From assembly GCA_029269845.2 (NCBI GenBank), contig CP149973.1, forward strand, positions 1,770,001-1,802,000: 32,000 nucleotides of DNA, read 5' to 3'. Source of the stretch: Opitutia bacterium KCR 482. GTDB lineage: Bacteria; Verrucomicrobiota; Verrucomicrobiia; Opitutales; Intestinicryptomonadaceae. Under the pieces are notes generated by a model. It was not told the origin of the DNA. It saw only the letters and a list, made by a program, of their open reading frames with translations, and ran no database searches. This document shows positions 6,810-22,557 of this stretch, piece by piece. A program made the position numbers and the translations under genes. Within the stretch, counting starts at the first letter, position 1. Every line of letters starts with the position of its first letter.

Positions 6810-6818
6810 GCGCGTTAG

Positions 6819-7196
6819 ACGGCGCGTGAAAGCACTTCCCTAAGGGCGTTTCCCTGTACGCCCAGACCGCTCGCGTACGAAAGTACGCCACGCGCCCTGT
6901 GCGCACAGGAAAGCCACCCTTATGAAAGCACTTTGACGCGCCTAACAAGTGAGTGCTATCGCACGAAGATTTTTAGAGTGCGCTGGGATAAAAGCGGGGT
7001 GGGGCGGTAGGCGGAGAATTTGCGTTTGCGGATTTTCGTTTTTTTTATCCGCGCAAAGCGCGTCTATTTAATTAGTTTCTGTCTGATATTCGTCAATTTC
7101 AATTCCAGTAATTGCCAACGGCAATACGAACTAAAACAGAAAAGGCGCGGTTATAGCCGCGCCGCATAATCACAGAAAGGAGCGAAGCTCCGACGA
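6819..7196. repeat. Copy A of a conserved, hairpin-rich non-coding element of about 0.4 kb (candidate structured RNA or intergenic repeat family)
   Basis: Collinear same-strand alignment with 19605-20066. The first 77 nt differ by 2 substitutions and 1 loop indel. The last ~90 nt differ at ~10 positions. Hairpins are conserved at 6873-6888, 7028-7052, 7111-7125, 7144-7163 and 7179-7191. No ORF is shared between the copies. Confidence 0.85.
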
Positions 7197-7272
7197 GTGG
7201 CGCGGCTCGCGTCTGAAATAAGGCTTGCATAATGGAGGTGTGGTGTTAAGGTTTTGGATAAAAGTACAGTTT

Positions 7273-8157: not shown

Positions 8158-8206
8158 GCCGACATTCCGCGCTTGCGGAGTCGGGTTTGCATTCTTTCAA
8201 TACACG

Positions 8207-8233
8207 GCGCGGTTTTTCGACCGCGCTTTTTTT
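8207..8233 (+). terminator. Rho-independent terminator of the TorF-like gene
   Basis: Stem GCGCGGT (8207-8213) pairs with ACCGCGC (8220-8226). Loop is TTTTCG, followed by T7 (8227-8233). Confidence 0.75.
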
Positions 8234-8277
8234 GCGTAATTTTTCCCGAATAAAAATCCCTCCACGCGCCAAATAAA

Positions 8278-8298
8278 AGCCCGCATGTTTTGCGGGCT
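8278..8298 (-). terminator. Hairpin with a minus-strand U-tract (second, tandem terminator downstream of eda)
   Basis: AGCCCGCA (8278-8285) pairs with TGCGGGCT (8291-8298). On the minus strand it is followed by TTTTATTT. Confidence 0.5.
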
Positions 8299-8340
8299 TT
8301 GACGCTATGCGCTTTGCAAAAACACTGAACGCGCGGGCGC

Positions 8341-8372
8341 AAAAAAAGGCGCGGAATTTCCGCGCCTTTTTG
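8341..8372. terminator. Bidirectional rho-independent terminator (ends eda on the minus strand)
   Basis: A7 (8341-8347), then stem GGCGCGG (8348-8354) pairing with CCGCGCC (8360-8366), then T5. It lies ~25 nt downstream of the eda stop. Confidence 0.8.
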
Positions 8373-8393
8373 TTTTTTGAAATGTCGGGGAAA

Positions 8394-9029
8394 TTAGGCG
8401 TTGAGAGCCGCCGTTGCCTCTTCCGCGTTCTTGCGGATAGCCGCCCAGTCGCGCTCGTTGATGAGCTTTGCGGGGGCAATCCACGAACCGCCGATTGCAG
8501 CCACCAGCGGCGACGAAAGGTATTCGCCCATGTTCGCAAGCTTCAAGCCGCCGAGGGGAATGAAGCTTACGCCGAGGTGCTTGTAGGGGGCAGCCATGCT
8601 TTCGAGGTGCTTCATGCCGCCTGTCGTGCCCGCGGGGAAGTACTTCATGAGCGTGCAGCCGTGTTCGAGCGACTGCTCGATTTCGCTGGGCGTCATGATT
8701 CCGGGGGCGAAGGGCAGACCCGCCTTTTGCGCGGCGTCAATCACGCGGACGTTGCAGCCGGGGCTTACGGCGAAATCCGCGCCGCGCCTCTTGGCTTCCT
8801 CCGCCTGTTCGGGCGTCAAAACCGTGCCGATGCCGAGCATGATTTTCTGCGCCTTTTCGACAATCGCCGACGCGCATTCGAACGCGTTGGGCGTGCGGAG
8901 CGTAAGCTCGATTGCCTTGATGCCGCCGTCGGCGAGGGCGTTTGCCAAATCGACGGCGTCGTTTTTGTCGTTTACGCTAAGAACCGCGACAATGCGCGCT
9001 TCCCTTACTTTTTCAGCCAAAGTTTTCAT
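8394..9029 (-). CDS. eda: KDPG / 4-hydroxy-2-oxoglutarate aldolase
   Basis: 211 aa with the typical Eda pattern: IVAVL..., GGIKAIELTLRTP, IGTVLTPEQ, FAVSPG, PGIMTPSE, MKYFPA (Schiff-base Lys context), IPLGG. Confidence 0.9.
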   Translation of the reverse strand: MKTLAEKVREARIVAVLSVNDKNDAVDLANALADGGIKAIELTLRTPNAFECASAIVEKAQKIMLGIGTVLTPEQAEEAKRRGADFAVSPGCNVRVIDAAQKAGLPFAPGIMTPSEIEQSLEHGCTLMKYFPAGTTGGMKHLESMAAPYKHLGVSFIPLGGLKLANMGEYLSSPLVAAIGGSWIAPAKLINERDWAAIRKNAEEATAALNA

Positions 9030-9243
9030 GTCGTCGAGCTTGGCGCATTCTCATTCGATTGCAAATTAAATTTTGCGCCAATTTGCGGATTCCCGCGATT
9101 TTTTTTGCCGCGCCCGATTTGCGCCGCGCAAAGGCTTGGCTTCCACACGCGGAATGCGCGGCGTCGGCGGGGCATGCGGCTGATTTTGAAAACGCGGAAT
9201 CTGCTTGCCGCACGCGCGGAGTCGGCTTCGCGGGCGCGGGCGT

Positions 9244-10111
9244 TTAGCGTTCCCCGCCGTTGCGGACGCCCGACTTGAAAGCTTCGAATTTTTGCGTGTC
9301 GAAAATAATGTCGATTGCGCCGATTTTGTCCGCGGGGAAGCCAGCCGGCGCGAGCACGTTTTCGAGGACGTATTTTTTCAGCGAAACTTCGGCGTCGATT
9401 CTCGCGCGGAGCATGTTTTGCGCGCTTTTGGAACGCTCGGCGAGGTACTGCGGGAACTCGCTTTTTTTTGTACTCGGCGATTTTCGCGTTGACGCCGTCG
9501 GAAATCGAGCTTTCGCGGACGTCGCATTTGATTTCGGAGTACTTGACGGGCGTTTCGCATTCGAGCGCGTCGAAGTAGAACGCGAAGCGCAGCATGCCGT
9601 CGTCCGACTTGCTCGTGTCGAATTTCAGCCCTCTGAACGGAATGTAGTACTGGTAGTGCGCCACCGCCTCCATTTGCAGAGAGCCCGAAAGAAATTTGAA
9701 TTTGGAGAAGTCCGCCCTGATTTTCACGCGCTCGTCGATGCCTGCCACAACGTATTTGTTTTCGGGGCTTGCGCCCAGAAATTCGGTCTCGTAGCTTACG
9801 GTTGCCTTCGGGGCGGCGGCGAGCGATTTTTGTATAGACTGCGCGGCGTCCGACAACGCGCTTTTTGCCGCATTGTAGGCGTCGTCCGCCGTTTGGTTCA
9901 GGGCGGAGCAGCCGCGGAAAACGAGCGCGGAGGCAACGAACGCCGCGACGAACGTAAAGCAGAGCACGGCGCACGAAATTTTGCGCCTTAAATTGAGCTT
10001 TTTATTTTTGCGCCTGCGGGGCGCAGCGGGAGAGTCTGGCAAGTCCGCGCCCGACGTTTCGCGGCTTTCCGAAACGCCTGCGTTTTTCGGGCTTGCGTTG
10101 TCCGTCTCCAT
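9244..10111 (-). pseudogene. Membrane-anchored hypothetical protein (possibly DUF4230-like), frameshifted at an A8 homopolymer
   Basis: The N-terminal 217 aa look genuine: a TM helix (ISCAVLCFTFVAAFVASALVF) followed by a mixed-composition domain. After ...AKIAEYKKK the frame becomes Arg-rich junk. The +1 frame continues with EFPQYLAERSKSAQNMLRARIDAEVSLKKYVLENVLAPAGFPADKIGAIDIIFDTQKFEAFKSGVRNGGER and stops at 9246-9244. Removing one A from the A8 run (T8 at 9462-9469 on the plus strand) restores a 288-aa ORF. Confidence 0.65.
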
Positions 10112-10123
10112 TTTTTCGGCGGC

Positions 10124-10783
10124 TTATCGAAGCGCGGCGTTTGCCGCGGCGATTAGAGCCGCGCCGTTTTTGAAAAATTCCGTTCCCGCAACGACCGTGT
10201 CGCAGCCGCGTTTCACGCATTCGCCGACGTTTTCGGCGGTGATTCCGCCGTCGATTTCAATGCGGTACGAGAGTTTCAGCTCGTCGCGCAGAGCCGCAAG
10301 GCGCGAGATTTTGTCGAGCGCGACGGGGTTGAACTTTTGCCCGCCGAAGCCTGGCTGCACGCTCATCACAAGCACCATGTCAACGCGCGGCAGGTAGGGG
10401 ATTGCCTCCCCGATTTCGGTTTTCGGGTTTATGACGACGCCGAGCTTTTTGCCCGCCGTGTGGATATTGTCGAGCGTCGCCGCAACGGGGTAGTCAGGCT
10501 CGACGTGGATTGTAATCATGTCCGCGCCCGCTTCGGCGAACGCGTCGATGTACAGGTGCGGGTTGTCGAGCATGAGATGGACGTCGTAGAACATTTCGGG
10601 GCGGCGTTTTTTTAGCGCCTTCACGACCCCTGGTCCGAACGAAAGGTTCGGCACAAAGTGTCCGTCCATCACGTCGACGTGAACCCATTTCAGACCCGCC
10701 GCCGCTATTTTTTCGACCGATTCGCCGAGCGCGGCGTGGTCGCCGCCGAGAATCGACGGGGCTATTTCGAGAGAGTTTACCAT
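10124..10783 (-). CDS. rpe: Ribulose-phosphate 3-epimerase
   Basis: 219 aa starting at the internal ATG (MVNSLEIAPSILGGD). Motifs HVDVMDGHFVPN, HLM, MSVQPGFGGQKF and IEIDGG are present. The upstream part of ORF 10124..11386 is Arg-rich junk that overlaps the next gene. Confidence 0.92.
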   Translation of the reverse strand: MVNSLEIAPSILGGDHAALGESVEKIAAAGLKWVHVDVMDGHFVPNLSFGPGVVKALKKRRPEMFYDVHLMLDNPHLYIDAFAEAGADMITIHVEPDYPVAATLDNIHTAGKKLGVVINPKTEIGEAIPYLPRVDMVLVMSVQPGFGGQKFNPVALDKISRLAALRDELKLSYRIEIDGGITAENVGECVKRGCDTVVAGTEFFKNGAALIAAANAALR

Positions 10784-11292
10784 ATTCCTATAACAGCGTC
10801 CTTGATTTTTCCGCCAAGTTCGCGCATGAGCACGGGCATGTTCTGGTATTCCGCGCCCAGCGTGCCGTTGGCGGCTTCGGGGTAAATCATCGCGCGCGCG
10901 CGCACTTTCCTGTTTTTGAAAACGACGTCGCCGTTGGAGCGCACGAGCGTGCATTCGGCGACAGCCTCCATTGCGTAGGACGCCGCGAGCGCGGTATCGT
11001 CTTCGCGCGTGGCGACCGGCTTGCGCTCGTATGATACGATTGTCGTGGAGAGCGTCGCCTGCGCGTCGCCCGCGAGCGCGGTTTTGAGGTTTGGCGTGCG
11101 GTTTATCGCGTTCGAAATTTCGTTTGTGAGCAGGTTCGACGCCTGCGCCGCATAGGAGTCGTTCCTGACGGGCTTGACGTAGACCGACTTGAACGGAAGC
11201 TCCGTGGGAGTCCCCGCAAGCCTGTAATTTGCGCAGCCAGCCGCGAAAAGCGCGAGCGCGGAAAGCGTGAGGAGTGTGGCGAGTTTTTTCAT
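10777..11292 (-). CDS. Lipoprotein, LptE-like (LPS-assembly lipoprotein)
   Basis: 171 aa. Lipobox LFAAGC is followed by ANYRLAG (compare CGFHLRG in LptE). The size and the position next to a BamD-like gene fit. The family call is from memory and moderate. Confidence 0.55.
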   Translation of the reverse strand: MKKLATLLTLSALALFAAGCANYRLAGTPTELPFKSVYVKPVRNDSYAAQASNLLTNEISNAINRTPNLKTALAGDAQATLSTTIVSYERKPVATREDDTALAASYAMEAVAECTLVRSNGDVVFKNRKVRARAMIYPEAANGTLGAEYQNMPVLMRELGGKIKDAVIGIW

Positions 11293-11294
11293 GT

Positions 11295-12569
11295 CTATTC
11301 CGCTTTTTCGATTTCGTCGGAGGTCCACTGGCGGAAGCCGTCTTCGAAGAGGAAGTCGTCGAGCGGTTCGCCGAAAATCGGGGCAAGCCCCTCGTAGGTT
11401 TTTGTCTTTCCGTCGGCGTCGGTCTCCTGATAGACCGCCGCTCCGGGGGTTGCGAGGAAGTCTTCGACCGACATCGTTTCGAACTGTTCGTTGTCGAGTT
11501 TCGCGATTTGCGTTTCGTCGTCGAACTGGTCGATAGTGGGCTTTTCGTACCTGCCCCAGAACCAGTCGTAGGGGGTCATCGGCGCGAGAATGCCGTCCTT
11601 GATTTTTTTCAGCTGCGCGCGCGCCTCCTCCGCGGCGGGGCTGTCGGGCGCAAGGGTGATTGTCTCGTTGTAGAAAATCGACGCCGCGACGTGGTTGTTG
11701 CGGTAGTAGTAGTAGAAATCGCCCATGACGAGGCGGCTGCGGGCGTAGGTGTCGCGCATTTTGTCGAGCCCCTCTTCGGCTTTCGAGACGCCCGCCTCTT
11801 TGGGGAAGAGAATGAGGTAGTCCTGATAAAAGCTGATTGCATTCTTTGTGGGCGACTGGTCGTATTCGGGGCCCGCCACCATGCCGCGGTAGACTTTCGC
11901 CATCTGCATGTAGGCGTCGGGCGCGAACATGCTTTGCGGGTAGTTGTTGATGAGCCTGTCGAGCGCGTCGAATGCGACTTCGGGGGTGTCCTCCTGCTCG
12001 GCGATGAGGGATATGTTCATCAGGGAAATCGGGGCGTAGTCGCTGTAAGGGGCGTTTTTGACGACGCCCTCGTAGATTTTGATTGCGTCGTTGTAGTTTG
12101 TGAACCACGGAAACCAGCCCCAGAGATAGGGGGTTGCGCCGCTTTGGATAATCGAGGCTACGTTGTATTCCTCGCCGATGATTCTGTTGAATTTGGGGTA
12201 GTCGGGATAGCGTTTCACGACTTCCTGCAAAGATTCGAACGCGTCCATGAACTGCCCGCGCTTTGTGTAGACGAGCGACATTTGGTAGTACGCTTCGGGC
12301 GCGAAAATGGAGTCGGGATACTGCGTGATGATTGTTTTGTAGTAGGAGAGGGCGACCCTGTTTTCGCCGTCCTCCTGCGCCCGCTTGCCCTCGTTCATGG
12401 CTTGGAGCGCGTTCGAGACCGTTTTCGCCTCGCCGAGGACGTTTGCTATTACGCCGCCCTGAACCTCCCAGCCTTTTTCGGCGTTCCAGACGAGGTCGGC
12501 ATTCGCCGTCCCCGCCGCCGCAAGCGACAGCGCGACCGCCGCCGATTTGATGTATTCGCTAATTCTCAT
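11295..12569 (-). CDS. TPR-repeat outer-membrane assembly factor-like protein (BamD/YfiO-like), exported
   Basis: The signal peptide begins at the second ATG (MRISEYIKSAAVALSLAAAGTANA). An alternative start is 12590. Repeated YPDS/YPDY...APEAYY TPR-like units resemble BamD. At 424 aa it is longer than classical BamD, and it has no lipobox Cys. Confidence 0.55.
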   Translation of the reverse strand: MRISEYIKSAAVALSLAAAGTANADLVWNAEKGWEVQGGVIANVLGEAKTVSNALQAMNEGKRAQEDGENRVALSYYKTIITQYPDSIFAPEAYYQMSLVYTKRGQFMDAFESLQEVVKRYPDYPKFNRIIGEEYNVASIIQSGATPYLWGWFPWFTNYNDAIKIYEGVVKNAPYSDYAPISLMNISLIAEQEDTPEVAFDALDRLINNYPQSMFAPDAYMQMAKVYRGMVAGPEYDQSPTKNAISFYQDYLILFPKEAGVSKAEEGLDKMRDTYARSRLVMGDFYYYYRNNHVAASIFYNETITLAPDSPAAEEARAQLKKIKDGILAPMTPYDWFWGRYEKPTIDQFDDETQIAKLDNEQFETMSVEDFLATPGAAVYQETDADGKTKTYEGLAPIFGEPLDDFLFEDGFRQWTSDEIEKAE

Positions 12570-12629
12570 TTTGCGCCGATTCAATATCATAATTGCGAAA
12601 ATGGCAACAGAAATATCCCGCCGAAATTT

Positions 12630-13568
12630 TCACGCGCGGGGGTGGTTCAGGCGGTGTTCCTCCACGAGTTTGCGCGTGCCGAGGTGCGTGTAGATTTGCG
12701 TCGTCGAAAGGCTTGCGTGTCCGAGCATCTCCTGCAACGAGCGCAGGTCTATACCCGCGTTCACAAGGTGCGTGGCGAACGAGTGCCGCAGTTTGTGCGG
12801 CGTGATGTCCGACGGCAGCATTGTCTCGGCCAGGTATTTTTTTATCATGCGCTGGACGTAGCGCGGGTACAGCGGCTTCCCGCTTTCGAGCGTTATGGCG
12901 GGCGCGTCGCGCTCCGTCGATTTTGCGAATTCGCTCCGCCAGAGCCTCAGCACCTCGCCTGCCTTTTCGCCGAACGGGCAGAAGCGCACTTTCGAGCCTT
13001 TGCCCAGTATCCTCGCCGAGTTCGTGGAAAAATCCACGTCTCCCCATTTGAGGTTGCAGAGTTCGCTTACGCGCAGTCCCGCGCCGTAGAGCAGTTCGAG
13101 GCACAGGGCGTCGCGCACCGCCTCCTCTTTGCTCTCGCGCCCGTCGGCTTCGTCAACGCGCGGTGCGGAAAGCAATGACGGCATTGCGCTTTCCGACAAA
13201 AACACGGGCAGCCCCTTCTCCTTTTTCGGAAGCCGCACGAGCGAAAACGGGTCGGCTTCCGCGCTTTGCGAGCGTATCAAATATTTGTAGAACGAGCGTA
13301 TCGCGGAAATCCTGTTGTGGATTGTTGAGCGCGAGTACTCCATTCCGAGTTTTGCGACGTACGCGCGGGCGGTTTTTTTGTCCGCCATGCGGAAGTCTCC
13401 GCCCGCGTAGTCCGTTTCCGCAAGCCAAGAAATCCAGTCGGCGACCGCCTCGCGGTAGTTGCGGACTGTGTATTTGGAGTACCTCCGCTGGTTCGAAATC
13501 ATGAACACGAATTCGTCAAGCTCGCGCGGGGCGGCTTTTGCGGGGGCGGTTTCTCGGTTTTTCTCCAT
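12630..13568 (-). CDS. Tyrosine site-specific recombinase, XerC/XerD family
   Basis: 312 aa starting at the internal ATG, which overlaps the upstream stop (TAATG). It has an N-terminal SAM-like domain (YSKYTVRNYREAV...IRSFYKYL). The catalytic residues sit in context: LLYGAGLRVSE, HKLRHSFATHL, LGHASLSTTQIYTH. I cannot separate XerC from XerD. Confidence 0.85.
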   Translation of the reverse strand: MEKNRETAPAKAAPRELDEFVFMISNQRRYSKYTVRNYREAVADWISWLAETDYAGGDFRMADKKTARAYVAKLGMEYSRSTIHNRISAIRSFYKYLIRSQSAEADPFSLVRLPKKEKGLPVFLSESAMPSLLSAPRVDEADGRESKEEAVRDALCLELLYGAGLRVSELCNLKWGDVDFSTNSARILGKGSKVRFCPFGEKAGEVLRLWRSEFAKSTERDAPAITLESGKPLYPRYVQRMIKKYLAETMLPSDITPHKLRHSFATHLVNAGIDLRSLQEMLGHASLSTTQIYTHLGTRKLVEEHRLNHPRA

Positions 13569-14473
13569 TACATTCCGAAGAACGCGCTTGCGATATTCGC
13601 AAAGTACGAGTCCACCCAAGTTTTCAGAAACACGAAATAGAGAAGCCCGCCGCACGCAAGCCACGGGCCGAACGGAATTGCGAGCGGGTCGGCTTCCGAT
13701 CCGTCGGCGAATTTTTTGCGCGGCGCGGATTTTTTCGAAAAGACGCGCTTTGTCGCGACAATCGGAATCATCGTCAACGCCCCGATTATCGACCCTCCGA
13801 AGATTGCAAAAATTGCGCCCTGCCAGCCGCAGAATGCGCCTATGCAGCCAATCAGAATGACGTCTCCCTCGCCCATCGCCTCTTTTTTGAAAACGCACTC
13901 GCCGAGCGTCCTTACCCAGTAGAGCACGCCCGAACCGACCGCGATTCCGACCGCCGACTTTATCCCGGACGCCACGACCGACGCCGCGAAAGGCGCGTCC
14001 TCTATCAGCGTTCCGTGGATTTGCGGCATCATAAGCGACAGCGCAAAGCCCGCCGCCGTCCCGCCGATTGTCGCGAAGTCCGGCAGCATCATGTGGTCTA
14101 TGTCGACAAACGCGCAGAAAACCATAATCGCGGCAAATACCATTCCCGCGAACGCCGCGTAGGGCGTCGCCGTCGTCCACAGCGCGAGGAAGATTGCAGC
14201 CGTCAGCGTCTCGACAAACGGGTAGCGGAACGAAATCCTGCGCCCGCAGCACCGCGCCCTTCCGCGCAACAGAAACCAGCCGACAATCGGGAGGTTGTCG
14301 AACCACCTAATCGGCTTCCCGCACGCGCAGTGCGACGGCGGGCTTACTATCGATTCGCCCTTGGGGATTCTGTAAATGCACACGTTCAGAAAACTGCCGA
14401 CGCACGCGCCGAGGCAGAAAAAAAACGCGTCGAAAATTTCGGGAAACTGCGCGTTGATTTCAGCGATGTCCAT
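13568..14473 (-). CDS. A24-family prepilin (type IV leader) peptidase
   Basis: 301 aa. An N-terminal Cys-rich region is present (SFLNVCIYRIP...PPSHCACGKPIRWFDNLPIVGW). The two catalytic Asp contexts are FVDIDHMMLPD and MGEGDVILIG. It is polytopic and hydrophobic. Confidence 0.88.
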   Translation of the reverse strand: MDIAEINAQFPEIFDAFFFCLGACVGSFLNVCIYRIPKGESIVSPPSHCACGKPIRWFDNLPIVGWFLLRGRARCCGRRISFRYPFVETLTAAIFLALWTTATPYAAFAGMVFAAIMVFCAFVDIDHMMLPDFATIGGTAAGFALSLMMPQIHGTLIEDAPFAASVVASGIKSAVGIAVGSGVLYWVRTLGECVFKKEAMGEGDVILIGCIGAFCGWQGAIFAIFGGSIIGALTMIPIVATKRVFSKKSAPRKKFADGSEADPLAIPFGPWLACGGLLYFVFLKTWVDSYFANIASAFFGM

Positions 14474-15386
14474 ACAGGTTCTCCTTTATTGTTTCGAGCA
14501 TGAACGCGCCCATGAGCGGCGCGCCCGTCCAGATTGAAAGCGATTTCGCCCCCTGCCACGCGAGCATCGCAAGCCCGTTTTCGGCGGGGATTCCGTTTGC
14601 GCGCGCGGCGAGCACCGACGGCGTTTCGCCGTTGCGGCGGTAGGGCATGTCGAGGAACGCGCAGTCGGGCGGGATTTTCGAGAAGTCCACAACGGGACTG
14701 TCGTCCGCATTAAGCCCCACCGACGTCGCGTTTACGACGATTGCCCGCGGCGGAATTTTTGCCTCTATTCCCGCGAGCGACGCCGTTTTTATTTCGAAAT
14801 TTTCCATGCTTAAATCATCGGCAAATTTTTTCAGGCGTTCGGGATTTCTGTTCGCCACAAGGAGCGATTTGCAGCCCGCCGCGATTATCGCCGCCGCCGC
14901 TCCGCGAGCCGCGCCGCCCGCGCCGAGCAGCACCGCGTCGGCGTTTGCAAAGCCGCGCCCGAACGCGTGTTCGACCGCCGCCGACACGCCGAATCCGTCG
15001 GTGTTGAAGCCTTTCCAGCCGCGCGGCGTGCGCAGAAGCGTGTTGCACGCCTTGGCGTTTTCCGCGCTTGCGTCGAAGTCGTTTACGACGCGCATTGCAA
15101 TCTCTTTGTGGGGGATTGTCAGGTTGATTCCGGCAAAGTTTTTCCGCCAAAAAACGTCGAGCGTCTCGGCGAGTTTTTCAGGCTCCACTTCGAACGCGAA
15201 GTATTTTGCGCCGTCGAGCTCCGCGTTCGTTTTTGCGACTTTCGCAAGCGCGGCGTTTTGCATGAGCGGGCTTAGCGAGTGCCCTATCGGCTTGCCGAAG
15301 ACCGCAAAAAACGGCGGCTTCGAATTTTCCGAGCGTCCGGCGAACGCGCCCTCCGAGAGGTTCGAAACATGCAGAACTTCCGCCAT
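14460..15386 (-). CDS. aroE: Shikimate dehydrogenase
   Basis: 308 aa. Motifs FAVFGKPIGHSLSPLMQNAA, GINLTIPHK, NTDGFG and LGAGGAARGAA (Rossmann) are present. It overlaps the prepilin peptidase start by 14 nt. Confidence 0.88.
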   Translation of the reverse strand: MAEVLHVSNLSEGAFAGRSENSKPPFFAVFGKPIGHSLSPLMQNAALAKVAKTNAELDGAKYFAFEVEPEKLAETLDVFWRKNFAGINLTIPHKEIAMRVVNDFDASAENAKACNTLLRTPRGWKGFNTDGFGVSAAVEHAFGRGFANADAVLLGAGGAARGAAAAIIAAGCKSLLVANRNPERLKKFADDLSMENFEIKTASLAGIEAKIPPRAIVVNATSVGLNADDSPVVDFSKIPPDCAFLDMPYRRNGETPSVLAARANGIPAENGLAMLAWQGAKSLSIWTGAPLMGAFMLETIKENLYGHR

Positions 15387-15387
15387 A

Positions 15388-16098
15388 TTACAAAGAGTAG
15401 TCGCGCGCGCCGAACAGGAATGTTCCCACGCGGATTATTGTGGAGCCGCATTCCACGGCGCGTTCGAGGTCGCCGCTCATGCCCATCGAGAGTTCGGGAA
15501 GCGCCACCGAAAAGCTTTTTTCGAGCGCGTCGCGGAGGTTTCGGAGGTTTTCGAAACAGCGCGTGGCTGTGTCCAAATTGGAGTCGAGCGGTGCGATTGC
15601 CATCAGCCCCTCGACCTTTATGTTTTCGAGCGCAAGCGCGGCGTCGAGCAGCGCGGGGGCTTCCTCCGTGTCCGCGCCGAATTTTGCGGGGTCGCGCCCC
15701 GAATTTATTTGCAGGAGCACGCGCATTTTTTTGCCGAGCTTTGCGCATTCGGCGTCGATTTTTTTCAGCAGTTTTTCGGAGTCCGCGCTCTGGATTCTGT
15801 CGACGCGCCCGACGGCGTGCTTTACCTTGTTTGTTTGGAGGTGTCCGATAAGCTCCCACTCTATTTTCAGGGCGCGGCCGCGCTCCGAGTCGAACTTTTC
15901 CATGACTTCCTGAACGCGGTTTTCGCCGACCGCCCCGAACCCGTAGCGCGCCGAGTATTCTACGGCGTCCACGGGGTGCGTTTTTGTGACGGGCAGTATT
16001 TTCACGTCGGCGGGATTGCGCCCGCAGGCGGCGCACGCGTTTTCGACGCGTTCAAGAAGTCTGCGGCAGTTGCCGCAAAATTCTTCGTATGCAATCAT
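15388..16098 (-). CDS. yggS: YggS-family pyridoxal-phosphate homeostasis protein
   Basis: 236 aa. Motifs ILPVTKTHP (PLP Lys), GENRVQE, WELIGHLQTNKVK, LSMGMSGD and IRVGTFLFG are present. Confidence 0.88.
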   Translation of the reverse strand: MIAYEEFCGNCRRLLERVENACAACGRNPADVKILPVTKTHPVDAVEYSARYGFGAVGENRVQEVMEKFDSERGRALKIEWELIGHLQTNKVKHAVGRVDRIQSADSEKLLKKIDAECAKLGKKMRVLLQINSGRDPAKFGADTEEAPALLDAALALENIKVEGLMAIAPLDSNLDTATRCFENLRNLRDALEKSFSVALPELSMGMSGDLERAVECGSTIIRVGTFLFGARDYSL

Positions 16099-16102
16099 TG
16101 TA

Positions 16103-17497
16103 TTACTTGTTTTTCTTGTTGTCGATGCTTGCGGCGATTAGGCGTTTGCCGAATTTCCACAGCGAGCCGGTCGGGTTTGCCGCCTCCGTGAGAGTTTCGT
16201 CGAACGCCTTTACGAACCTGTCCACTTCCCTTTCCGTTATGATAAACGGCGGAAGCAGTTTCACGGCGTGGACTTCGTGGCTTGTAACCTGCGTTATGAT
16301 TTTGTAGTTGTCCATAAGCGACGTTACAATCATCTGCGTGAAGAGCGAATTATTCGCGGCTTTCAATGCTTTCCACGCCGCCTTTTGCAGAAGCCCTTTC
16401 GGCTCCTGAAATTCTATTGCAATCATAAGCCCCAGCCCGCGCACTTCCCTGATGTACGAGTGTTTCTCTTTGAGGGCTTCGAGCTTCTGTTTGAGCAGCG
16501 CGCCCATTTTTGCGCAGTTTTCGACCATTCCGTCCTTTTCGAGAACGTCGATTGTCGCCAAGCCCGCGACCATTGCGAGGTTGTTTCTGCCGAAAGTCGT
16601 GGAGTGTTTTACGCAGTTTTCGAGCGGCGAGAAGACGCTCTGGTGGATTTCCCTTGTGGTGATGAATGCCGCGCACGGAACGTAGCCGCCGCTGAGCGCC
16701 TTCGCCATCGTGACGATGTCGGGCTCTAGCCCCCAGTGCTGGTATGCGAACATTTTGCCCGTCCTGCCGAAGCCCGTCTGCACTTCGTCCATGATGAAGA
16801 GCGCGCCGTATTTGCGGCAGAGTTCCTGCGCCTTCGGGAAGAAGCCGTCGGGCGGAATGTCGACGCCGTGCCCGATGACGGGTTCGGAGATGAACGCGGC
16901 GACGTTGCCCTCTTTGAGTTTCGCTTCGAGGTCTGCGAGGTCGGCGAATCCGATTTTGTCGGTGTCGGGCAGGAACGGGCCGAAGCCGTCCCTGAAATGC
17001 GGCGTGTGGGTTATCGACATCGAGCCGTATGTCAGCCCGTGGTAGCAGCCGTCCATCGAAATTATGCGCGGACGTTTTGTGTGGGCGCGGGCGAATTTTA
17101 TCGCGCCTTCGTTTGCTTCGGTTCCGGAGTTGCAGAAGAAGACGGCGGAGAGTTTGTTGTTGTGCAGTTTTACGATTCTCTCCGCGAGCAGGCCGCTGAG
17201 CAACGCGCAGTCGAGCTGTACCATGTTCGACAAATCCATGTCGATTGCGTCCTTGATTGCCTTGCCGATTACGGGGTTGTTGCGCCCCATTCCGAACACG
17301 CCGTAGCCCGATATGAAGTCGAGATATTCGTTGCCGTCGGCGTCGTAGAGGTATGCGCCCTTGGCGCGTTTGTAGCACTTGTCGAACCCGATTGTTTTAA
17401 GCACGGTTGCGAGCGTTCGGTTGACGTATTTTTCGTGCAAATCGTAGTTCTGCCCGAAGCGCGAGTCTATCAATTCCTTTAAGTCGAAATCTTTCAT
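16103..17497 (-). CDS. Class-III (omega-type) PLP aminotransferase, substrate not assignable
   Basis: 464 aa. Motifs YLDFISGYGVFGMGRNNP, NSGTEANEGAIKFAR, FISEPVIGHG, IMDEVQTGFGRTG and the TMAKALSGG (PLP Lys) context are present. Confidence 0.85.
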   Translation of the reverse strand: MKDFDLKELIDSRFGQNYDLHEKYVNRTLATVLKTIGFDKCYKRAKGAYLYDADGNEYLDFISGYGVFGMGRNNPVIGKAIKDAIDMDLSNMVQLDCALLSGLLAERIVKLHNNKLSAVFFCNSGTEANEGAIKFARAHTKRPRIISMDGCYHGLTYGSMSITHTPHFRDGFGPFLPDTDKIGFADLADLEAKLKEGNVAAFISEPVIGHGVDIPPDGFFPKAQELCRKYGALFIMDEVQTGFGRTGKMFAYQHWGLEPDIVTMAKALSGGYVPCAAFITTREIHQSVFSPLENCVKHSTTFGRNNLAMVAGLATIDVLEKDGMVENCAKMGALLKQKLEALKEKHSYIREVRGLGLMIAIEFQEPKGLLQKAAWKALKAANNSLFTQMIVTSLMDNYKIITQVTSHEVHAVKLLPPFIITEREVDRFVKAFDETLTEAANPTGSLWKFGKRLIAASIDNKKNK

Positions 17498-17559
17498 TGA
17501 TAAATTTTTTTTCCGCCTTAACTTTACCCCACACTATAAATACTTCAAACATTATTTCG

Positions 17560-18399
17560 ATGGAAATTTTATCCTCATACTATGTGGTCGATTTCGACCC
17601 CTTCGCGCTCCGCTTTCCCGACGGCTGGTTTTTGGAGGGCGTAAGGTGGTACGGGCTTGCGTATCTGGCGGGCTTTGTAATCGCGCTTTGGCTGTTCAAC
17701 CTCTATTATAAAAAGGGCAAAAGCCCGCTGTCGCCCGACGACAACGCGTCCCTCATTACCTATCTGCTCTTCGGCGTGATTCTCGGCGGACGCCTCGGCT
17801 ACATGCTTTTCTACGATTTTTCGAACTTTGTGTCGAACCCGCTAATCGCGCTCCAAATCTGGAAGGGCGGAATGGCAAGCCACGGCGGATTCATCGGCGT
17901 GGTGCTTTCCATGGTATGTTTTGCGAGAACGAGGAAAGTCTCTTTCTGGAAAATCGCCGACATTGTCGCGACCGCGTGCACCCCGGGGATTTTCCTCGGC
18001 AGAATCGCAAACTTCGTCAACGGCGAGCTTTGGGGCAAGGTTTCCGACTTTCCGTGGGCGATGGTTTTCCCGCACTCCGCGCCCGCGGGCACGGCAATCG
18101 AAAACATCGCCGCCCGACACCCGTCGCAGCTCTACGAGGCGTTCGCGGAGGGGCTTTTCATCTTCCTGTTTTTGCAGTGGCGTTTCTGGCGCGGGAAAAA
18201 CCTTTCCGACGGGCGCATAGCGGGCGAATTTCTTTCTGTCTACGCCGTGGTGCGCATAATCTGCGAGGTCTTCCGCGAGCCGGACTTCGGCGTAGAGCCT
18301 ATTTTGGGGCTGAGCAGGGGCACGTTTTACTCCGCGCTGACGCTCGCGGCGGGGCTTGCCATAATTGCCTATTCCAAATTCCGCACTCCCGAAAAATAG
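17560..18399 (+). CDS. lgt: Prolipoprotein diacylglyceryl transferase
   Basis: 279 aa starting at the internal ATG (MEILSSYY...). Motifs RWYGLAYLAGF, GGRLGY, WKGGMASHGG, LGRIANFVNGELWG and HPSQLYEA are present. Confidence 0.9.
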   Translation: MEILSSYYVVDFDPFALRFPDGWFLEGVRWYGLAYLAGFVIALWLFNLYYKKGKSPLSPDDNASLITYLLFGVILGGRLGYMLFYDFSNFVSNPLIALQIWKGGMASHGGFIGVVLSMVCFARTRKVSFWKIADIVATACTPGIFLGRIANFVNGELWGKVSDFPWAMVFPHSAPAGTAIENIAARHPSQLYEAFAEGLFIFLFLQWRFWRGKNLSDGRIAGEFLSVYAVVRIICEVFREPDFGVEPILGLSRGTFYSALTLAAGLAIIAYSKFRTPEK

Positions 18400-18459
18400 C
18401 GCGTCGAGCTTTTATTGTTGCGTTCGGCGGGCGTTTTTTAACATACTTTTTTCAATTCA

Positions 18460-19605
18460 ATGGGAACGATAAACAAATACATCTTCAAACAGGTCGCGAT
18501 GGCGGCGTTGATGACCGTCGCGCTGTTTGTGTTCGTGCTCGTGCTCGGCAACGTCATAAAAGAGGTTATGGGCGAGCTCGCCGCGGGAAGGCTCAGCATT
18601 TCGTTCTTTCTGTATATCGTCGCGCTGATTATACCGGGAGTCATTCCCTACGCGCTTCCGCTCGGCATGCTCACGGGCATTCTGCTTGTGTTCGGCAGAA
18701 TGTCGGCGCAAAGCGAGGTCGTGGCGATGAAGGCGTGCGGACGCTCCATTTACAGCATGGCGGCTCCCGTGTTCTTTCTGGCGATTTGCGCGTCGCTGTT
18801 TTCGGTGGCAATCAACTTCTACTACGCGCCCGCCGCCGACTACGCCTACAAGAGCGCGCTCAAAAACCTCGTCCGCGCAAACCCGCTCCAATTTATCCAA
18901 CCAGGTTCGTTTATCCGCGACTTCCCCGGCTATGTAATCTACGCAAACTCCTCCGACGGCAACGAGCTTGTGAGCTTCCGCATTTGGGAGCTTGACAAAC
19001 GGGGCAGGGCGCAGATTTCCATACAGTCGGAGCGCGGCGCGCTTTCGTACGACGACGCCCGCGACGAAATCGTGCTGACCCTCAAAAACGGCAGCGCGGA
19101 GCGCGCGAGGTCGGGCGACCCCGAAGACCTGCGCAAGCCCCTTCCGTCGGCGCGTTTCGACGAGCTTGTAATCAAGCTTCCGCTCAACGAGATTATCGGA
19201 ACTATGGACAAGGGCAAAAAGCGGCTGAAAGTAATGACTTTCGGCGAGCTTCTCGACGCCCGCGAAACTTGGCACAGATTCCCGCCCGAACAGACCACGC
19301 CCGAACGCGCGTTCCACGACAAAATCGAGGTTCAGTTGCAGATTCAGAAAAATTTTGCGATGGCGTTTTCGATATTTTCGATGGTGGTGCTCGCCGTTCC
19401 GCTCGGAATAAAGGCAAGCAGAAGCGAGACTTTTGCGAACTTGGCGATAGCGCTGGCGTTGGCGATGAGCTACTACATGATGACGGTCGTGATTTCGTGG
19501 CTCGAAAAATACCCCGAAATGCGCCCCGACATTCTGATTTGGATACCCAATTTCATATTCCAAGCCGTAGGCACATACTTAATCTATCGGTCATCGCGCA
19601 ACTAA
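18460..19605 (+). CDS. LptF/LptG-family (YjgP/YjgQ) LPS export permease
   Basis: 381 aa. It has the typical N-terminus INKYIFKQV, three N-terminal TM helices, a central periplasmic beta-jellyroll-like region, and C-terminal TM helices. Confidence 0.85.
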   Translation: MGTINKYIFKQVAMAALMTVALFVFVLVLGNVIKEVMGELAAGRLSISFFLYIVALIIPGVIPYALPLGMLTGILLVFGRMSAQSEVVAMKACGRSIYSMAAPVFFLAICASLFSVAINFYYAPAADYAYKSALKNLVRANPLQFIQPGSFIRDFPGYVIYANSSDGNELVSFRIWELDKRGRAQISIQSERGALSYDDARDEIVLTLKNGSAERARSGDPEDLRKPLPSARFDELVIKLPLNEIIGTMDKGKKRLKVMTFGELLDARETWHRFPPEQTTPERAFHDKIEVQLQIQKNFAMAFSIFSMVVLAVPLGIKASRSETFANLAIALALAMSYYMMTVVISWLEKYPEMRPDILIWIPNFIFQAVGTYLIYRSSRN

Positions 19606-20066
19606 CGGCGCGTGAAAATACTTCCCTAAGGGCGTTTCCCTGTACGCCCAGACCGCTCGCGTACGATAAGTACGCCACGCGCACGGGGCGTGAAAGCACC
19701 GTTGATGCGGCGTTTCGCGAGTGTCTCAGACCGCTTACATACGCCAAGTATGCTGCGCGCCCTGTGCCACTCGCAAAGCCGCCGCCTGAACGGCACTTTG
19801 ACGCCCCTAAAATTACAGCGCACGGCGCGGAAGATTTTTAGAATGCGCTGGGAGAAAAGTGGAGTTATTGGGTTGGTGAGCCGACTTGTGTTTGCGGATT
19901 GCCGTTTTTTTATTTATCCGCGCGGAGCGCGTCTATTTTAATTTGTTTCTTGCAAACATTCGGCAATCCCTATCGTCAGTAATTGCCGCAGGCAATACGG
20001 ACTAATCCAGAAAAGGCGCGGTTATAGCCGCGCCGAATAATCACAGAAAGGAACGAAGTTCCGACG
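19605..20066. repeat. Copy B of the conserved non-coding element, with its 78-nt 5' module tandemly duplicated
   Basis: It aligns with 6819-7196. Module 1 is 19605-19682 and module 2 is 19683-19760 (50/78 gapless identities by hand count). Conserved hairpins lie at 19659-19675, 19738-19752, 19894-19921, 19981-19995, 20014-20033 and 20050-20062. Confidence 0.85.
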
Positions 20067-20242
20067 CCGTGCAGGCTGCAGCCTGCCTCGCGCCTTGGGG
20101 CTTGACTTTTTGGGGGGAGTGGGCAAAATGAGTTGATGTTGGAGGGCGATATACGCTTGGGGGTATTTGAGCCGATGGCGTGGTATTCTTGGGTGTATGT
20201 GGCTCTTGTTTTTCAAAAATAAAATCAAAGGAAGAGAAGAAT

Positions 20243-21613
20243 ATGGTAAATCGCAGAGGATTTATGAAATCGGCTGCCGCTGCGGGCGGATTGATGTTGT
20301 TGCCTTCGTGGAGCGCGGGCAAGCAGGTCGGTCCGAATAGCAAATTGAACATCGCGCTGGTTGGCGTGGGCGGAATCGGCGGCATGGCAATCGGGCAGTT
20401 GCTACCCTGCAAGCAGGCGAACATTGTCGCGCTTTGCGACGTAGACGACGCCCGCGCGGCGAAGAACTACAAGGCGTTTCCCGCAAGCATGCCGCGCTTC
20501 CGCGACTACCGCGTCATGCTCGACAAGATGGACAAGCAAATCGACGCCGTCGTGGTTTCCACTCCCGACCACATGCACTATCCCATCGCGGCTTGGGCGA
20601 TAGCAAAGGGCAAGCACGTCTTCTGCCAAAAGCCCCTCACGCGCACAATTTGGGAGGCGGAAGAATTGAAGCGTCTCGCGAAAGAGGCGGGCGTCATCAC
20701 GCAAATGGGCAATCAGGGGCACACCAATGAGGGCTGGCGTCTGATTAAGGAATGGTACGACGCGGGAATCCTCGGACAAATCGAGGAAATCCACATTTGG
20801 ACAAATCGCCCCGTGTGGCCGCAGGGCGACCTCAAAATGCCCGCGGGCCAGCCCGTTCCGCCTACGCTCGACTACAACCTGTGGCTCGGCGTCGCGCCCT
20901 ACCAGCCCTACAACAAGGCGTTCGTTCCGTTCAACTGGCGCGGTCTGCGCAACTACGGCACGGGAGCTGCGGGCGACATGGCGTGCCACTTCCTCGACGT
21001 TCCCTATTCGGCGTTCGACCTCGGCTTCCCGATGAGCGTCAAGGGCAACTCTACGCCTTTCAACGATTACAGCTGGCCGAGTCAGGCGTCGTCTGTTATG
21101 ACGTTCGTCAACCCGCGCGGCGTCGACAACAGAATCCGCCTGCACTGGTACGACGGCGGCAGAAAGCCGAAGGCGATTAAGCGCGTGGACAAGGCGTTCC
21201 TCGACGACCCGCGCAACAACAACGCGACATTCATCGTGGGCACAAAGGAAACCGTCTACACCAACGAATACGGCATGAATACCCGCATTTGGCCTGCGGC
21301 TCGCATGAAGGAATTGATGAAGGGCGGCAAGCTTCCGCAGAAGACCGTGCCGCGCTCCGTAGCCCCCGGCAAGCCGTTTGTTGAATGGACTCTCGCGTGC
21401 ATAGAGGGCAAACAGCCCAAGGGCAATTTCGACTACGCCGCGCCGTTCACCGAAATGGCGTTGCTGGGCATGATTGCGCTCTGCTTCCCCGACCGCGAAC
21501 TCAACTACATTCCCTCGACGATGTCGTTTGCGGGCTGCCCCGAAGCGGACAAATTCGTGCGCTCGCAGTACGAATACCGCAGCGAATTCCTGCCGTCGAA
21601 AATCATGCTGTAA
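20243..21613 (+). CDS. Gfo/Idh/MocA-family oxidoreductase with a twin-arginine (Tat) signal
   Basis: The start is at the internal ATG after a GGAAGAGAAG RBS. The Tat motif is NRRGFMKSAAAAG. The Rossmann segment is LNIALVGVGGIGG. STPDHMH and EKP-like (CQKPLT) motifs typical of the family are present. Confidence 0.88.
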   Translation: MVNRRGFMKSAAAAGGLMLLPSWSAGKQVGPNSKLNIALVGVGGIGGMAIGQLLPCKQANIVALCDVDDARAAKNYKAFPASMPRFRDYRVMLDKMDKQIDAVVVSTPDHMHYPIAAWAIAKGKHVFCQKPLTRTIWEAEELKRLAKEAGVITQMGNQGHTNEGWRLIKEWYDAGILGQIEEIHIWTNRPVWPQGDLKMPAGQPVPPTLDYNLWLGVAPYQPYNKAFVPFNWRGLRNYGTGAAGDMACHFLDVPYSAFDLGFPMSVKGNSTPFNDYSWPSQASSVMTFVNPRGVDNRIRLHWYDGGRKPKAIKRVDKAFLDDPRNNNATFIVGTKETVYTNEYGMNTRIWPAARMKELMKGGKLPQKTVPRSVAPGKPFVEWTLACIEGKQPKGNFDYAAPFTEMALLGMIALCFPDRELNYIPSTMSFAGCPEADKFVRSQYEYRSEFLPSKIML

Positions 21614-21665
21614 TCCGCAAAAAGGCGGTTGCGGAGAATGCTCCCCGACCGCCCGCGCGGCAAAC

Positions 21666-21703
21666 AAAAAAGGCTTTCGGATTTCCCCGAAAGCCTTTTT
21701 TTT
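21666..21703. terminator. Bidirectional rho-independent terminator between convergent genes
   Basis: An A-run is followed by stem AGGCTTTCGG (21671-21680) pairing with CCGAAAGCCT (21687-21696), then T8. Confidence 0.8.
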
Positions 21704-21720
21704 GCGCCTCGTTTTAAGCC

Positions 21721-22557
21721 CTATTTGAAAAGGCTTTTGAGCGTGTTTTCGACAGCCTTCGACGCGCCCTTCGCGGCTGAATTTGCGCCGTCGCCGCCAG
21801 CCTCGATGCCGCCCTTTACTGCGTCCCTAAGGAGCGCGGAAGTGCCGATGAGCGCAAGCTGTTCCACGATGTCCGTGATAAGCTCGCCCGCGGGCTCGCC
21901 GCCTTTGGAAGTGCCGATGTTTTCGAGCGCGAACGCGGGCATGCTGATTTGAAGCGCGCTGCCGTTAACCGAGCCGTCGATAACTCCCGCGCCGAAAGTC
22001 ATCTTTTTGATGATGAATTTCCACTGCGCGGCGTCGGCGTCGGCTTTCGCCGTCTGTTGCGCTTGGGCGTTTGCGTCCTTTTGGTTGGAAAGCCCGAATT
22101 TGTTTTCGAGGGCGGTTTTAATCGCCGTGATGTTCGACTGCGGCGAGGAGAGCAGGGCGGAAATTCCCTTTGCCGTCTTTACGTCGAGGTTCATGGCAAG
22201 CCCGTCGACTTTGATTTCGTCGATGACGATGAGCTTCTTCGCGAGGGCGTCGGAGAGCGTGATGTCGGCGTCGATAACCGCCTCTTTGAACGCGATTGCG
22301 TTGCACTGCTTGAAGTCGGGCGGGTTGGCGATGAAGAAGTTGTTGACCTGCACCTTTTGGTCGGAAATGCCGAGCGACACGGACGACACGCCAGCGTTGA
22401 TTCCCGTGCCCGCGGTTATTGTTTTGAGCGCGTAGTCGGCAACAAAGCCGAGCGTGAAGTAGAGCGCAATGCACAGCACCACGACCGCCAATACGAAAAT
22501 TTTTACGAGCGAAAATAGGCAACCGCCCCTTCTGTAATTATGGTTGGAAATCTTCAT
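21721..22557 (-). CDS. Membrane-anchored hypothetical protein (short AsmA/DUF748-like layout)
   Basis: 278 aa. An N-terminal TM helix (LVKIFVLAVVVLCIALYFTLGF) is followed by ...GVSSVSLGISDQKVQVNNFFIANPPDF...IVIDEIKVDGLAMNL, which is reminiscent of AsmA N-terminal repeats. The tail is Ala/Gly-rich. The family call is weak. Confidence 0.5.
   Translation of the reverse strand: MKISNHNYRRGGCLFSLVKIFVLAVVVLCIALYFTLGFVADYALKTITAGTGINAGVSSVSLGISDQKVQVNNFFIANPPDFKQCNAIAFKEAVIDADITLSDALAKKLIVIDEIKVDGLAMNLDVKTAKGISALLSSPQSNITAIKTALENKFGLSNQKDANAQAQQTAKADADAAQWKFIIKKMTFGAGVIDGSVNGSALQISMPAFALENIGTSKGGEPAGELITDIVEQLALIGTSALLRDAVKGGIEAGGDGANSAAKGASKAVENTLKSLFK

Follow-up and report, generated by a model that had tools for sequence, protein, structure and literature searches.

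A strongly covarying 129-nt hairpin repeat at gene stop codons in gut Verrucomicrobiota, and the half-unit that precedes one of its copies

The DNA analysed here (the window) is a stretch of 32,000 nt from Opitutia bacterium KCR 482 (GenBank assembly GCA_029269845.2, contig CP149973.1, positions 1,770,001 to 1,802,000 of the forward strand). It contains two related intergenic stretches of approximately 400–480 nt each, designated copy A (6810–7220) and copy B (19605–20100). Copy A follows a periplasmic-binding-protein gene and copy B follows a gene of the LptF/LptG family; the genes flanking the two copies also include those for Lgt, a porin and a dehydrogenase. Each stretch contains a long imperfect palindrome, termed the core, a tail, and a second repeat, termed element 2. 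The features are as follows; those of the copy B tail are based on repeat families D12 and D5 from the repeat search of the window.

6807–6809, plus strand: TAG stop codon of the periplasmic-binding-protein gene; core A lies 9 nt downstream.
6818–6945, minus strand: full core A, a 128-nt imperfect palindrome with an apical loop of the GAAA type.
6946–7049, plus strand: tail of copy A, with a covarying small hairpin (H1, 6953–6964), the box GAAGATTTTTAG..GGGATAAAAG and an intrinsic terminator (T1, approximately 7009–7049).
7046–7215, no strand assigned: element 2 of copy A, a separable second repeat (family D2).
19603–19605, plus strand: TAA stop codon of the LptF/LptG-family gene (18460–19605); the final A of this codon doubles as the repeat's first conserved base.
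19605–19682, minus strand: orphan half-unit M1, columns 2–79 of the core by nhmmer profile mapping; F-sense 5′ arm and apical hairpin P4 of the CTTCCCTAAGGG/CCTGTAC subfamily, with no matching 3′ arm downstream.
19682–19810, minus strand: full core B (M2, 19683–19760, plus its partner arm, 19761–19810), a 129-nt imperfect palindrome of the CCGTTGATGCGG/GCGAGTG subfamily.
19811–19915, plus strand: tail of copy B, with H1 (19818–19828), the conserved box (19830–19865) and a degenerate T1 with a terminal T-run (approximately 19905–19911).
19915–20090, no strand assigned: element 2 of copy B, approximately 90% identical to that of copy A across the 90-nt D2 stretch.

An earlier note on this DNA had described M1 and M2 as a tandem pair of 78-nt modules, identical at 50 of 78 positions in a gapless alignment and with conserved boxes in the same order and at the same spacing. 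These observations were confirmed. M1 and M2 adjoin directly, and when M2 was shuffled 20,000 times the best identity to M1 was 36, so that no shuffle reached 50. The window contains exactly three zero-mismatch occurrences of the box pattern GCGTGAAA-N13-GGCGTTTC-N10-CAGACCGCT, against an expectation of 0.00. The repeat search of the window returned three copies: 6819–6880, 19605–19666 (97% identical to copy A across 62 nt) and 19683–19744 (65%). Copy A contains a single unit, as the earlier note had stated.

The proposal that this is a repeated, structured element found elsewhere was likewise upheld. A scan with the box pattern of one genome per species yielded 13 loci, all of them in three uncultured gut Opitutales/Verrucomicrobiota metagenome-assembled genomes (MAGs) with four to five loci each, and a metagenome scan added 20 more (33 loci in total, numbered with the prefix L below). 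A covariance model, searched over the window and the fetched loci (272 kb), identified approximately 47 cores on the minus strand, with up to four cores within one 7-kb locus (L008).

It is apparent from these copies that the 78 nt are not the self-contained module that had been proposed. Every complete copy continues past the 78 nt with approximately 50 nt that pair back onto them, and the unit of repetition is an imperfect palindrome of 127–129 nt, folding as one long hairpin with helices P1 to P3, conserved internal loops and an apical hairpin, P4. The 78 nt thus represent the 5′ arm and the apical hairpin. The 5′ half reads ACGG, P1 (GGCGCGT), GAAAGCAC, P2, CGTTTC, P3, CCCAGACCGC and the P4 hairpin; the 3′ half, following P4, reads GCGCCCTG, P3′, AAAGCC, P2′, CACTTTG, P1′ (ACGCGCC) and TAA.

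The helices covary strongly across subfamilies. P1 is found as GGCGCGT/ACGCGCC and GGGGCGT/ACGCCCC; P2 as CTTCC/GAAAG, CCAGT/ACTGG and CCGTT/AACGG; and P3 as CCTGT/ACAGG, GCGAGTG/CACTCGC, CAAACG/CGTTTG and GCGCACG/CGTGCGC. When 13 cores were aligned and 49 pairs drawn by hand, both sides were found to change in 20 of the 49 pairs, a result matched by none of 500 shuffles, and pairing fell to 28–49% in slid registers. For 25 distinct cores, read on the minus strand, 98.9% of cells are paired, with 16 compensatory pairs (132 such cells) and an RNAalifold consensus energy of −81 kcal/mol.

These data bear directly on the model of the earlier note, in which the 78 nt make up an autonomous RNA domain or protein-binding unit, present once or twice. 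Both modules do keep the order and spacing of the boxes, and the piece can close on itself via GCGCGTG/CACGCGC. In addition, the junction between columns 78 and 79 of the core (CCACGC[G/A]C joined to ACGGGGCG) recurs with different partners, in the window and in L033, L028, L011 and L024. However, the sole helix able to close the 78 nt (columns 4–11 with 73–80) shows no compensatory change, and its pairing is nearly unchanged when it is slid by two columns (90% versus 93%). A supported closing stem belonging to the piece itself was therefore rejected, for want of covariation and because the GC-repeat register is ambiguous. Where column 6 is G, its long-range partner (column 124) covaries and the local partner does not; the 3′ arm is present in all complete family members; and M2 alone folds no better than shuffled sequences (z +0.78). 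Same-species DNA with a single full unit (L041), and fragments of many other lengths, also count against the model, which is already largely refuted and is regarded as scarcely credible.

The two modules of copy B are accordingly of different standing: M1 is an orphan half without a partner arm, and M2 pairs with 19761–19810, a continuation that M1 lacks. The P2 and P3 arms of M1 (CTTCCCTAAGGG, CCTGTAC) do not match the sole 3′ arm downstream (CCGCCTGAACGG, CACTCGC), which fits M2. Because the arms of M1, being of another subfamily, have no partner, the predicted fold of 19600–19815 is a single long hairpin accompanied by a purely local fold of M1; a complete version of the same unit lies at the same site in L041. 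A core identical to core B is found in L029 and L033.

Seven cores carry the same insertion of approximately 92 nt at one fixed site between P2′ and P1′ (L001, 1790–2010; L002, 4824–5044; L004, approximately 3900; L008, approximately 7012; L009, approximately 3260; L030, 222–243 and 494–515). It adds two or three hairpins, P1 remaining closed. One possibility is an optional expansion domain, another a nested element.

It is the minus strand that folds, and on this point the interpretation in the earlier note was not supported. Read on the minus strand, the helices of the core contain 52 G·U pairs and one A·C mismatch, versus one G·U and 52 A·C on the plus strand. Since biased mutation would need a strand asymmetry of more than 50-fold to produce this result, the conclusion is that pairing is selected on the minus strand. 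G·U and Watson–Crick pairs alternate at many positions of the core, and some G·U pairs are invariant. The minus-strand fold of the window cores is better by 9–22 kcal/mol; the minimum free energy is −84.8 kcal/mol (z −10.3) versus −62.5 kcal/mol on the plus strand for core A, and −78.7 versus −70.1 kcal/mol for core B. The cmsearch scores (141.7 bits on the minus strand versus 56.5 on the plus strand for core A, and 137.5 versus 62.2 for core B) show the difference, approximately 140 versus 60 bits, that is expected by construction of a model built from a minus-strand alignment. The core hairpin is thus optimised for the antisense strand of the gene whose stop codon adjoins it. An inference of the replication strand from GC skew, which on the minus strand is negative in 24 of 29 loci, was not used because the co-oriented flanking gene and redundancy among the loci confound it.

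The tail has the opposite bias. In 75-nt windows downstream of the GGGATAAAAG box, which include the T1 hairpin where it is present, predicted folds are stronger on the plus strand, and there are 115 G·U pairs on that strand versus 37 on the other. T1 of copy A consists of a hairpin and a T-run, and a terminator scan matched it at 7014–7037 on the plus strand. As the fold and G·U biases of core and tail lie on opposite strands, the unit combines an antisense-optimised hairpin with a sense-strand terminator.

The position of the repeat with respect to genes is also distinctive. With open reading frames (ORFs) called by a crude longest-ORF heuristic, the first core starts at −15 to +12 nt relative to a co-oriented gene's stop codon at approximately 24 of 32 loci. 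The stop codon is often built with the first A of the element (TA/A, TG/A) or stands directly before it (TAG/A), and at some loci the ORF enters the element by 12 nt and terminates at the TGA of GCGTGAAA. Cases in which an upstream ORF runs 12–15 nt into the repeat and uses this TGA were observed at L009 (2938–2949), L013 (185–196), L015, L023 and L008 (3843); the repeat thereby supplies the last three or four codons, as in an apparent AraC-type regulator (C-terminal sequence judged by eye) that is conserved in two MAGs. The upstream genes are unrelated housekeeping genes: those for LptG, a binding protein, AdoHcy hydrolase, a Na/H exchanger, FabH, Rho, PyrD, GpsA and H+-PPase. The core, which occurs alone or in head-to-tail arrays, is normally followed by a conserved tail of approximately 60 nt and a sense-strand intrinsic terminator. 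In copy A, GGCGCGTTAG, between the TAG codon and core A, is similar to a short repeat fragment.

This location raises the possibility of a sense-strand 3′-untranslated-region module, that is, an mRNA-stabilising or ribosome-stalling hairpin after the stop codon with its own terminator. A co-oriented upstream gene whose stop codon touches or overlaps the core is present at approximately 75% of loci, a sense-strand intrinsic terminator lies downstream, and sense RNA of the element, with a predicted fold of −62 to −70 kcal/mol, is almost certainly made. On the other hand, selection on pairing has acted on the other strand, the sense strand having 52 A·C mismatches, one G·U pair and a fold weaker by 9–22 kcal/mol, and copies in L001, L002, L006, L007 and L011 lie upstream of, or diverge from, their neighbour genes. 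This explanation is considered very unlikely.

Alternatively, the core might be a structured minus-strand RNA, antisense to the upstream gene. Such an RNA could act on the 3′ end of the gene, or serve as an insulator or processing site (e.g. an RNase III substrate) that blocks antisense transcripts; subfamilies would be set by the variable helices, and the conserved internal loops would be where a protein binds. The near-confinement of G·U pairs to the minus strand, including invariant ones and ones that alternate with Watson–Crick pairs, favours this explanation, as do the optional expansion of approximately 92 nt at a fixed site with P1 closed, which is seen in many structured RNAs, and the conservation of the element at the LptG stop codon in three species. 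Against it, no σ70-like minus-strand promoter was found within 400–600 nt of either window copy (by consensus scan, with the tail box inspected by eye). Each core is separated from the downstream gene by two hairpins that resemble minus-strand terminators (7191–7179 and 7163–7144 in copy A; 20062–20050 and 20034–20015 in copy B), and a same-sense upstream gene able to supply minus-strand read-through is present at only about half of the loci. The lack of a promoter, the upstream terminators and the mixed orientation of neighbours argue against regular antisense transcription. The core, moreover, has no U-tract or other conserved minus-strand 3′ end, and half-units, swapped subfamilies and arrays are hard to square with a single conserved RNA function. 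The minus-strand RNA is considered an unlikely explanation.

Comparison of orthologous sites indicates how the tandem arrangement relates to other arrangements. Ten independent assemblies encode an identical LptG protein and are for that reason treated as the same species. The spacer downstream of LptG in these assemblies ranges from 541 to 956 nt, in at least four arrangements; they are listed below with a fifth, from a contig whose flanks are 99.3% identical to the window.

L041: a single complete M1-type core.
L042: a complete M1-type core and a partial unit (columns 25–129).
Five assemblies and the window: M1 (1–78), then full M2.
Three assemblies (L034 type): M1 (1–78), full M2, a 22-nt spacer and a full M1-type core.
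L029 (fifth arrangement): a remnant of H1, then M2, a spacer and an M1-type core.

The half-plus-full arrangement is seen in eight of the ten independent assemblies and also at another locus, in L033, which rules out an assembly artefact; the arrangement is real. It had been supposed that M1 and M2 arose by an old duplication in situ, both units being kept. That proposal did not survive: M2 belongs to another subfamily, known from other loci, and strains with identical LptG carry a single full M1-type unit (L041), half plus full, or half plus two full units. The arrangement at the LptG site is recent enough to be polymorphic within the species. In two further species (LptG 90% identical) a full core also adjoins the LptG stop codon, and its 5′ half matches M1 at 64–65 of 78 positions.

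Similar variation was observed elsewhere. At the copy A site, genomes with flanks 96% and 93% identical carry cores of three different subfamilies, and arrays of three full cores are present in L006, L016 and L027. Fragments anchored at the 5′ end are 15, 34 and 78 nt long, and those anchored at the 3′ end begin at columns 23–28, 38, 44, 51, 66 and 90. Pieces of 9–10 nt (ACGGCGCGAG) before some cores correspond to the 3′ half of tail hairpin H1 (GCGCACGGCGCG), a mimic of the core start. The earlier note had set arbitrary truncation of other copies against a modular interpretation; truncation to many lengths was indeed found, but the recurrence of the column-78/79 junction means that the breakpoints are not wholly arbitrary. 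That junction coincides with ACGCGC, an internal copy of the terminal P1′ sequence. A search for an empty site, which would give the ends of the element and any target duplication, led to L002, which compared with window 21614–21720 is not syntenic on both sides.

Two metagenome contigs deserve separate mention. L029 (OGFM01001716.1) is a 12.7-kb contig that corresponds to window 7214–19615 at 99.3% identity; one of its ends is inside the copy B array and the other is at window 7214, approximately 10 nt upstream of the porin ORF and past the last hairpin of copy A. In L033 (approximately 4690–4720, minus-strand reading), a copy-B-like composite stops inside a hairpin of element 2 and runs into a start-less ORF that by eye resembles an outer-membrane efflux protein of the TolC type; this abrupt junction may be a chimeric assembly or a deletion.

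The exchange of whole units at gene ends is also what would be expected if the hairpin were a folded single-strand recombination or copying site, either a bottom-strand recombinase site of the attC kind or the 3′ end of a reverse-transcribed RNA, at which units are exchanged or added site-specifically. The folded strand is antisense to the ORF and abuts or overlaps its stop codon, as in integron attC; whole cores have been swapped at fixed positions while the flanks remain 93–96% identical; the M2 unit of the L034 type lies between two direct copies of M1 (1–78), which are approximately 96% identical; and several partial copies retain a common end (CCGT on the minus strand) and lack sequence at the other. 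Yet in many partial copies it is the opposite end that is missing. RYYYAAC...GTTRRRY boxes in the order of attC are absent, as are an integron integrase and a cassette array, and no reverse transcriptase was seen. The genes on either side belong to the core housekeeping set, and the window copies are 12.8 kb apart. Homologous or microhomology recombination is a simpler account of the junctions, and such a site is considered very unlikely. Somewhat less remote, although still unlikely, is the idea that the 129-nt hairpin serves as recognition structure for an undescribed system of copying or recombination that is specific for single strands and places units precisely at the stop codons of housekeeping genes. 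Candidates would be antisense-strand single-stranded DNA (attC- or HUH-like) or reverse-transcribed antisense RNA, with units added, swapped and deleted whole; the column-78/79 junction would then result from use of the internal terminal-site mimic, ACGCGC.

The explanation favoured here, to which a probability of roughly 60% is assigned, is that the family is a lineage-restricted array of REPIN/ERIC-like palindromic repeats that rearranges by recombination. Its behaviour is REPIN-, ERIC- and MITE-like: it is lineage-restricted, multi-copy and located at gene ends, with subfamilies, remnants and a longer variant. The tandem M1 is then best read as a half-unit left over from recombination between family members, and not as a repeated functional domain. 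M1 itself is the remaining first 78 nt, arm and tip, of a resident unit of another subfamily; a unit of a second subfamily would have been joined to it at column 78/79 by unequal, illegitimate or microhomology-mediated recombination; integration of an excised array segment might have had the same outcome. Shared short strings probably helped the joining, namely ACGGCGCG, present at the core start and in H1, and probably ACGCGC, at columns 74–79 and 120–125. In strains of the L034 type the unit of the second subfamily is still bordered on both sides by direct copies of M1 (1–78). The window type would then have lost a distal full unit by deletion between tail repeats. More generally, the repeats would be selfish or structural elements tolerated at gene ends, recombination would homogenise copies and swap them between loci, and the hairpin would be kept because a single-stranded form (minus-strand DNA or antisense RNA) is needed for persistence or propagation.

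Several points weigh against this explanation. The repeat has no terminal inverted repeats with a target-site duplication and no GTAG tag, and no transposase, RAYT-type HUH enzyme or recombinase was found adjoining any copy in the 272 kb. The free alternation of G·U and Watson–Crick pairs is more typical of RNA than of a DNA hairpin recognised by protein. The exact abutment to stop codons, and persistence at the LptG stop codon in three species, could indicate a host function instead of a selfish element. Finally, metagenome contigs may be chimeric at repeats, and the arrangements in L029 and L033 might be assembly products.

As to candidate enzymes, no HUH-type domain was found among the window genes, and a six-frame scan of the window and loci for the motif MP[ND]HxH gave one unconvincing match. 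A tyrosine recombinase is encoded between copies A and B (window 12630–13541, minus strand). It scores 287 bits with XerC (equivalog cut-off 335), 250 with XerD and 120 with the integron integrase model (cut-off 265), and it appears to be an ordinary chromosome-dimer resolvase of the XerC/XerD type.

The repeat family appears to be undescribed. Rfam gave no match at the gathering threshold across the whole window, and at E values up to 10 gave only chance-level matches (E 0.14–7) in 19500–20300, none of them on the core. A scan of viral contigs and a plasmid blastn search gave no match to the family, and the core boxes were not found together in the first 200 of the 408 supplementary files of a catalogue of gut-microbiome structured RNAs (PMC8040213). 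An exact-protein lookup of the genes around copy A returned no record.

If the favoured explanation is correct, the half-unit is a recombination scar with no function of its own. The family to which it belongs is a strongly covarying 129-nt hairpin repeat of human-gut Verrucomicrobiota that is anchored at stop codons, folded on the antisense strand and highly polymorphic between strains. The repeat breaks short-read metagenome assemblies, as illustrated by L029, which ends inside it; it could serve as a strain-typing marker, like ERIC and REP; and it offers a test case for distinguishing selection on single-stranded DNA hairpins from selection on RNA hairpins.

Element 2, the second repeat of both window copies, strings together five small hairpins in which compensatory changes are clear, and it stops immediately short of the promoter predicted for the downstream gene. 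The hairpins of copy A include CGCGC-AAA-GCGCG, TTGCC/GGCAA, GGCGCGG/CCGCGCC and GGAGC/GCTCC, the last three having the alternative forms TTGGC/GCCAA, GCGGCAAG/CTTGCCGC and GGAAC/GTTCC, respectively. Two hairpins have minus-strand T-runs and are terminator-like. Element 2 also occurs without any core, in L031 (approximately 9400–9640, near 9445).

Other repeats were seen nearby. In L034–L043 (approximately 4090–4450, equivalent to window 20066–20180), strains of the same species differ by extra hairpin modules, e.g. GGGTGGAGAATTTCGCAACGCGAAATCCACCC, between element 2 and the promoter of the dehydrogenase gene, the spacer being a mosaic of several repeat types. Just past the array in L013 (590–840) lies an inverted pair of another sort, GAGAGTCGCCGAACGAC..., in which GTACTTGGATAC/GTACTTGAGTAC hairpins border a terminator-like stem; this pair matches the core model weakly and is a possible distant relative. 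With regard to neighbouring genes, the one after copy A (7273–8157) encodes a putative porin of the TorF/Gcw_chp type, and the one after copy B is similar to a glycoside 3-dehydrogenase exported by twin-arginine translocation. Three sizeable ORFs near the repeats have no Pfam match (8307–9278, plus strand; 9026–10111, minus strand; 21721–22557, minus strand), and the first two have no NCBIfam match either.

With respect to known systems, retron msd, SRP/6S-like RNA (SRP, signal recognition particle), tandem riboswitch aptamers and integron attC were rejected on the basis of gene context and box order. Integron attC sites (e.g. the Vibrio VCRs, 123–126 nt) are long imperfect palindromes at ORF stop codons that fold on the antisense strand. 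The present repeat shares with them its position at stop codons, the antisense-strand fold and a structure conserved more than the sequence. It differs in that copy A, judged by eye against the attC consensus, reads GTTAGAC...GCCTAAC, the reverse box order, and its outer GTTAG is not conserved in other copies; nor are there an integrase, a cassette array or promoterless cassettes around the window copies. Rho-independent terminators resemble the tail, in which the T1 hairpin and its T-run lie on the sense strand; the 129-nt core, in contrast, lacks a U-tract on both strands and greatly exceeds a terminator stem in length. As regards MITEs, which have terminal inverted repeats and a target-site duplication, the palindrome here ends in GGCGCGT/ACGCGCC, and the base before the invariant A-CGG may be G, T, C or A and is not repeated after CCTAA.

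ERIC sequences (IRUs) are 127-bp imperfect palindromes in transcribed intergenic regions near gene ends, and they have longer variants with an insertion at a fixed site as well as truncated variants. The present family is like ERIC/IRU and the similar MITE-like palindromes Correia/NEMIS and RU-1 to RU-3 (for RU elements, PMC2759123) in its nearly equal size, imperfect palindrome, location at gene ends, fixed-site insertion and truncated variants. It is unlike ERIC in sequence (ERIC2 had no window match at three or fewer mismatches), in phylum, in having no evident TA target duplication or terminal inverted repeat, and in its strong orientation preference with respect to the upstream gene.

REPINs are extragenic hairpin repeats, mostly vertically inherited, in which the hairpin is kept by compensatory change (PMC3116915, PMC3337134, PMC3733652). 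In common with REPINs, which are REP doublets folding into hairpins, and with REP-BIMEs, both of them mobilised by RAYT transposases, the repeats described here are hairpin-forming, of approximately 100–130 nt, and present between genes and near stop codons, with several to many copies in each genome. They are retained at orthologous positions, fall into sequence subfamilies and leave singletons and half remnants; multiple extragenic copies with subfamilies and remnants, as in REPINs, amount to four to five strict-pattern loci per MAG. Unlike REPINs, they have no conserved, unpaired GTAG/CGTC tag at either end, the CGTC in GGCGCGTC being part of a paired helix (P1, minus strand) whose other arm reads CGTG. 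The arms show no conserved stem-loop of their own that would correspond to the REP stem-loops of 20–40 nt; there is one long palindrome, and the local hairpin of the M1 arm is subfamily-specific. In a REP–RAYT system a single-copy RAYT gene (IS200-like, Y1/HUH) is flanked by the repeats; no such gene was seen in the window and loci. In place of the inverted dimers typical of REP there are head-to-tail arrays in which each unit has a tail and a terminator. Taken together, these comparisons describe a family that departs from REPIN/REP and ERIC in defining features, but that works as they do.

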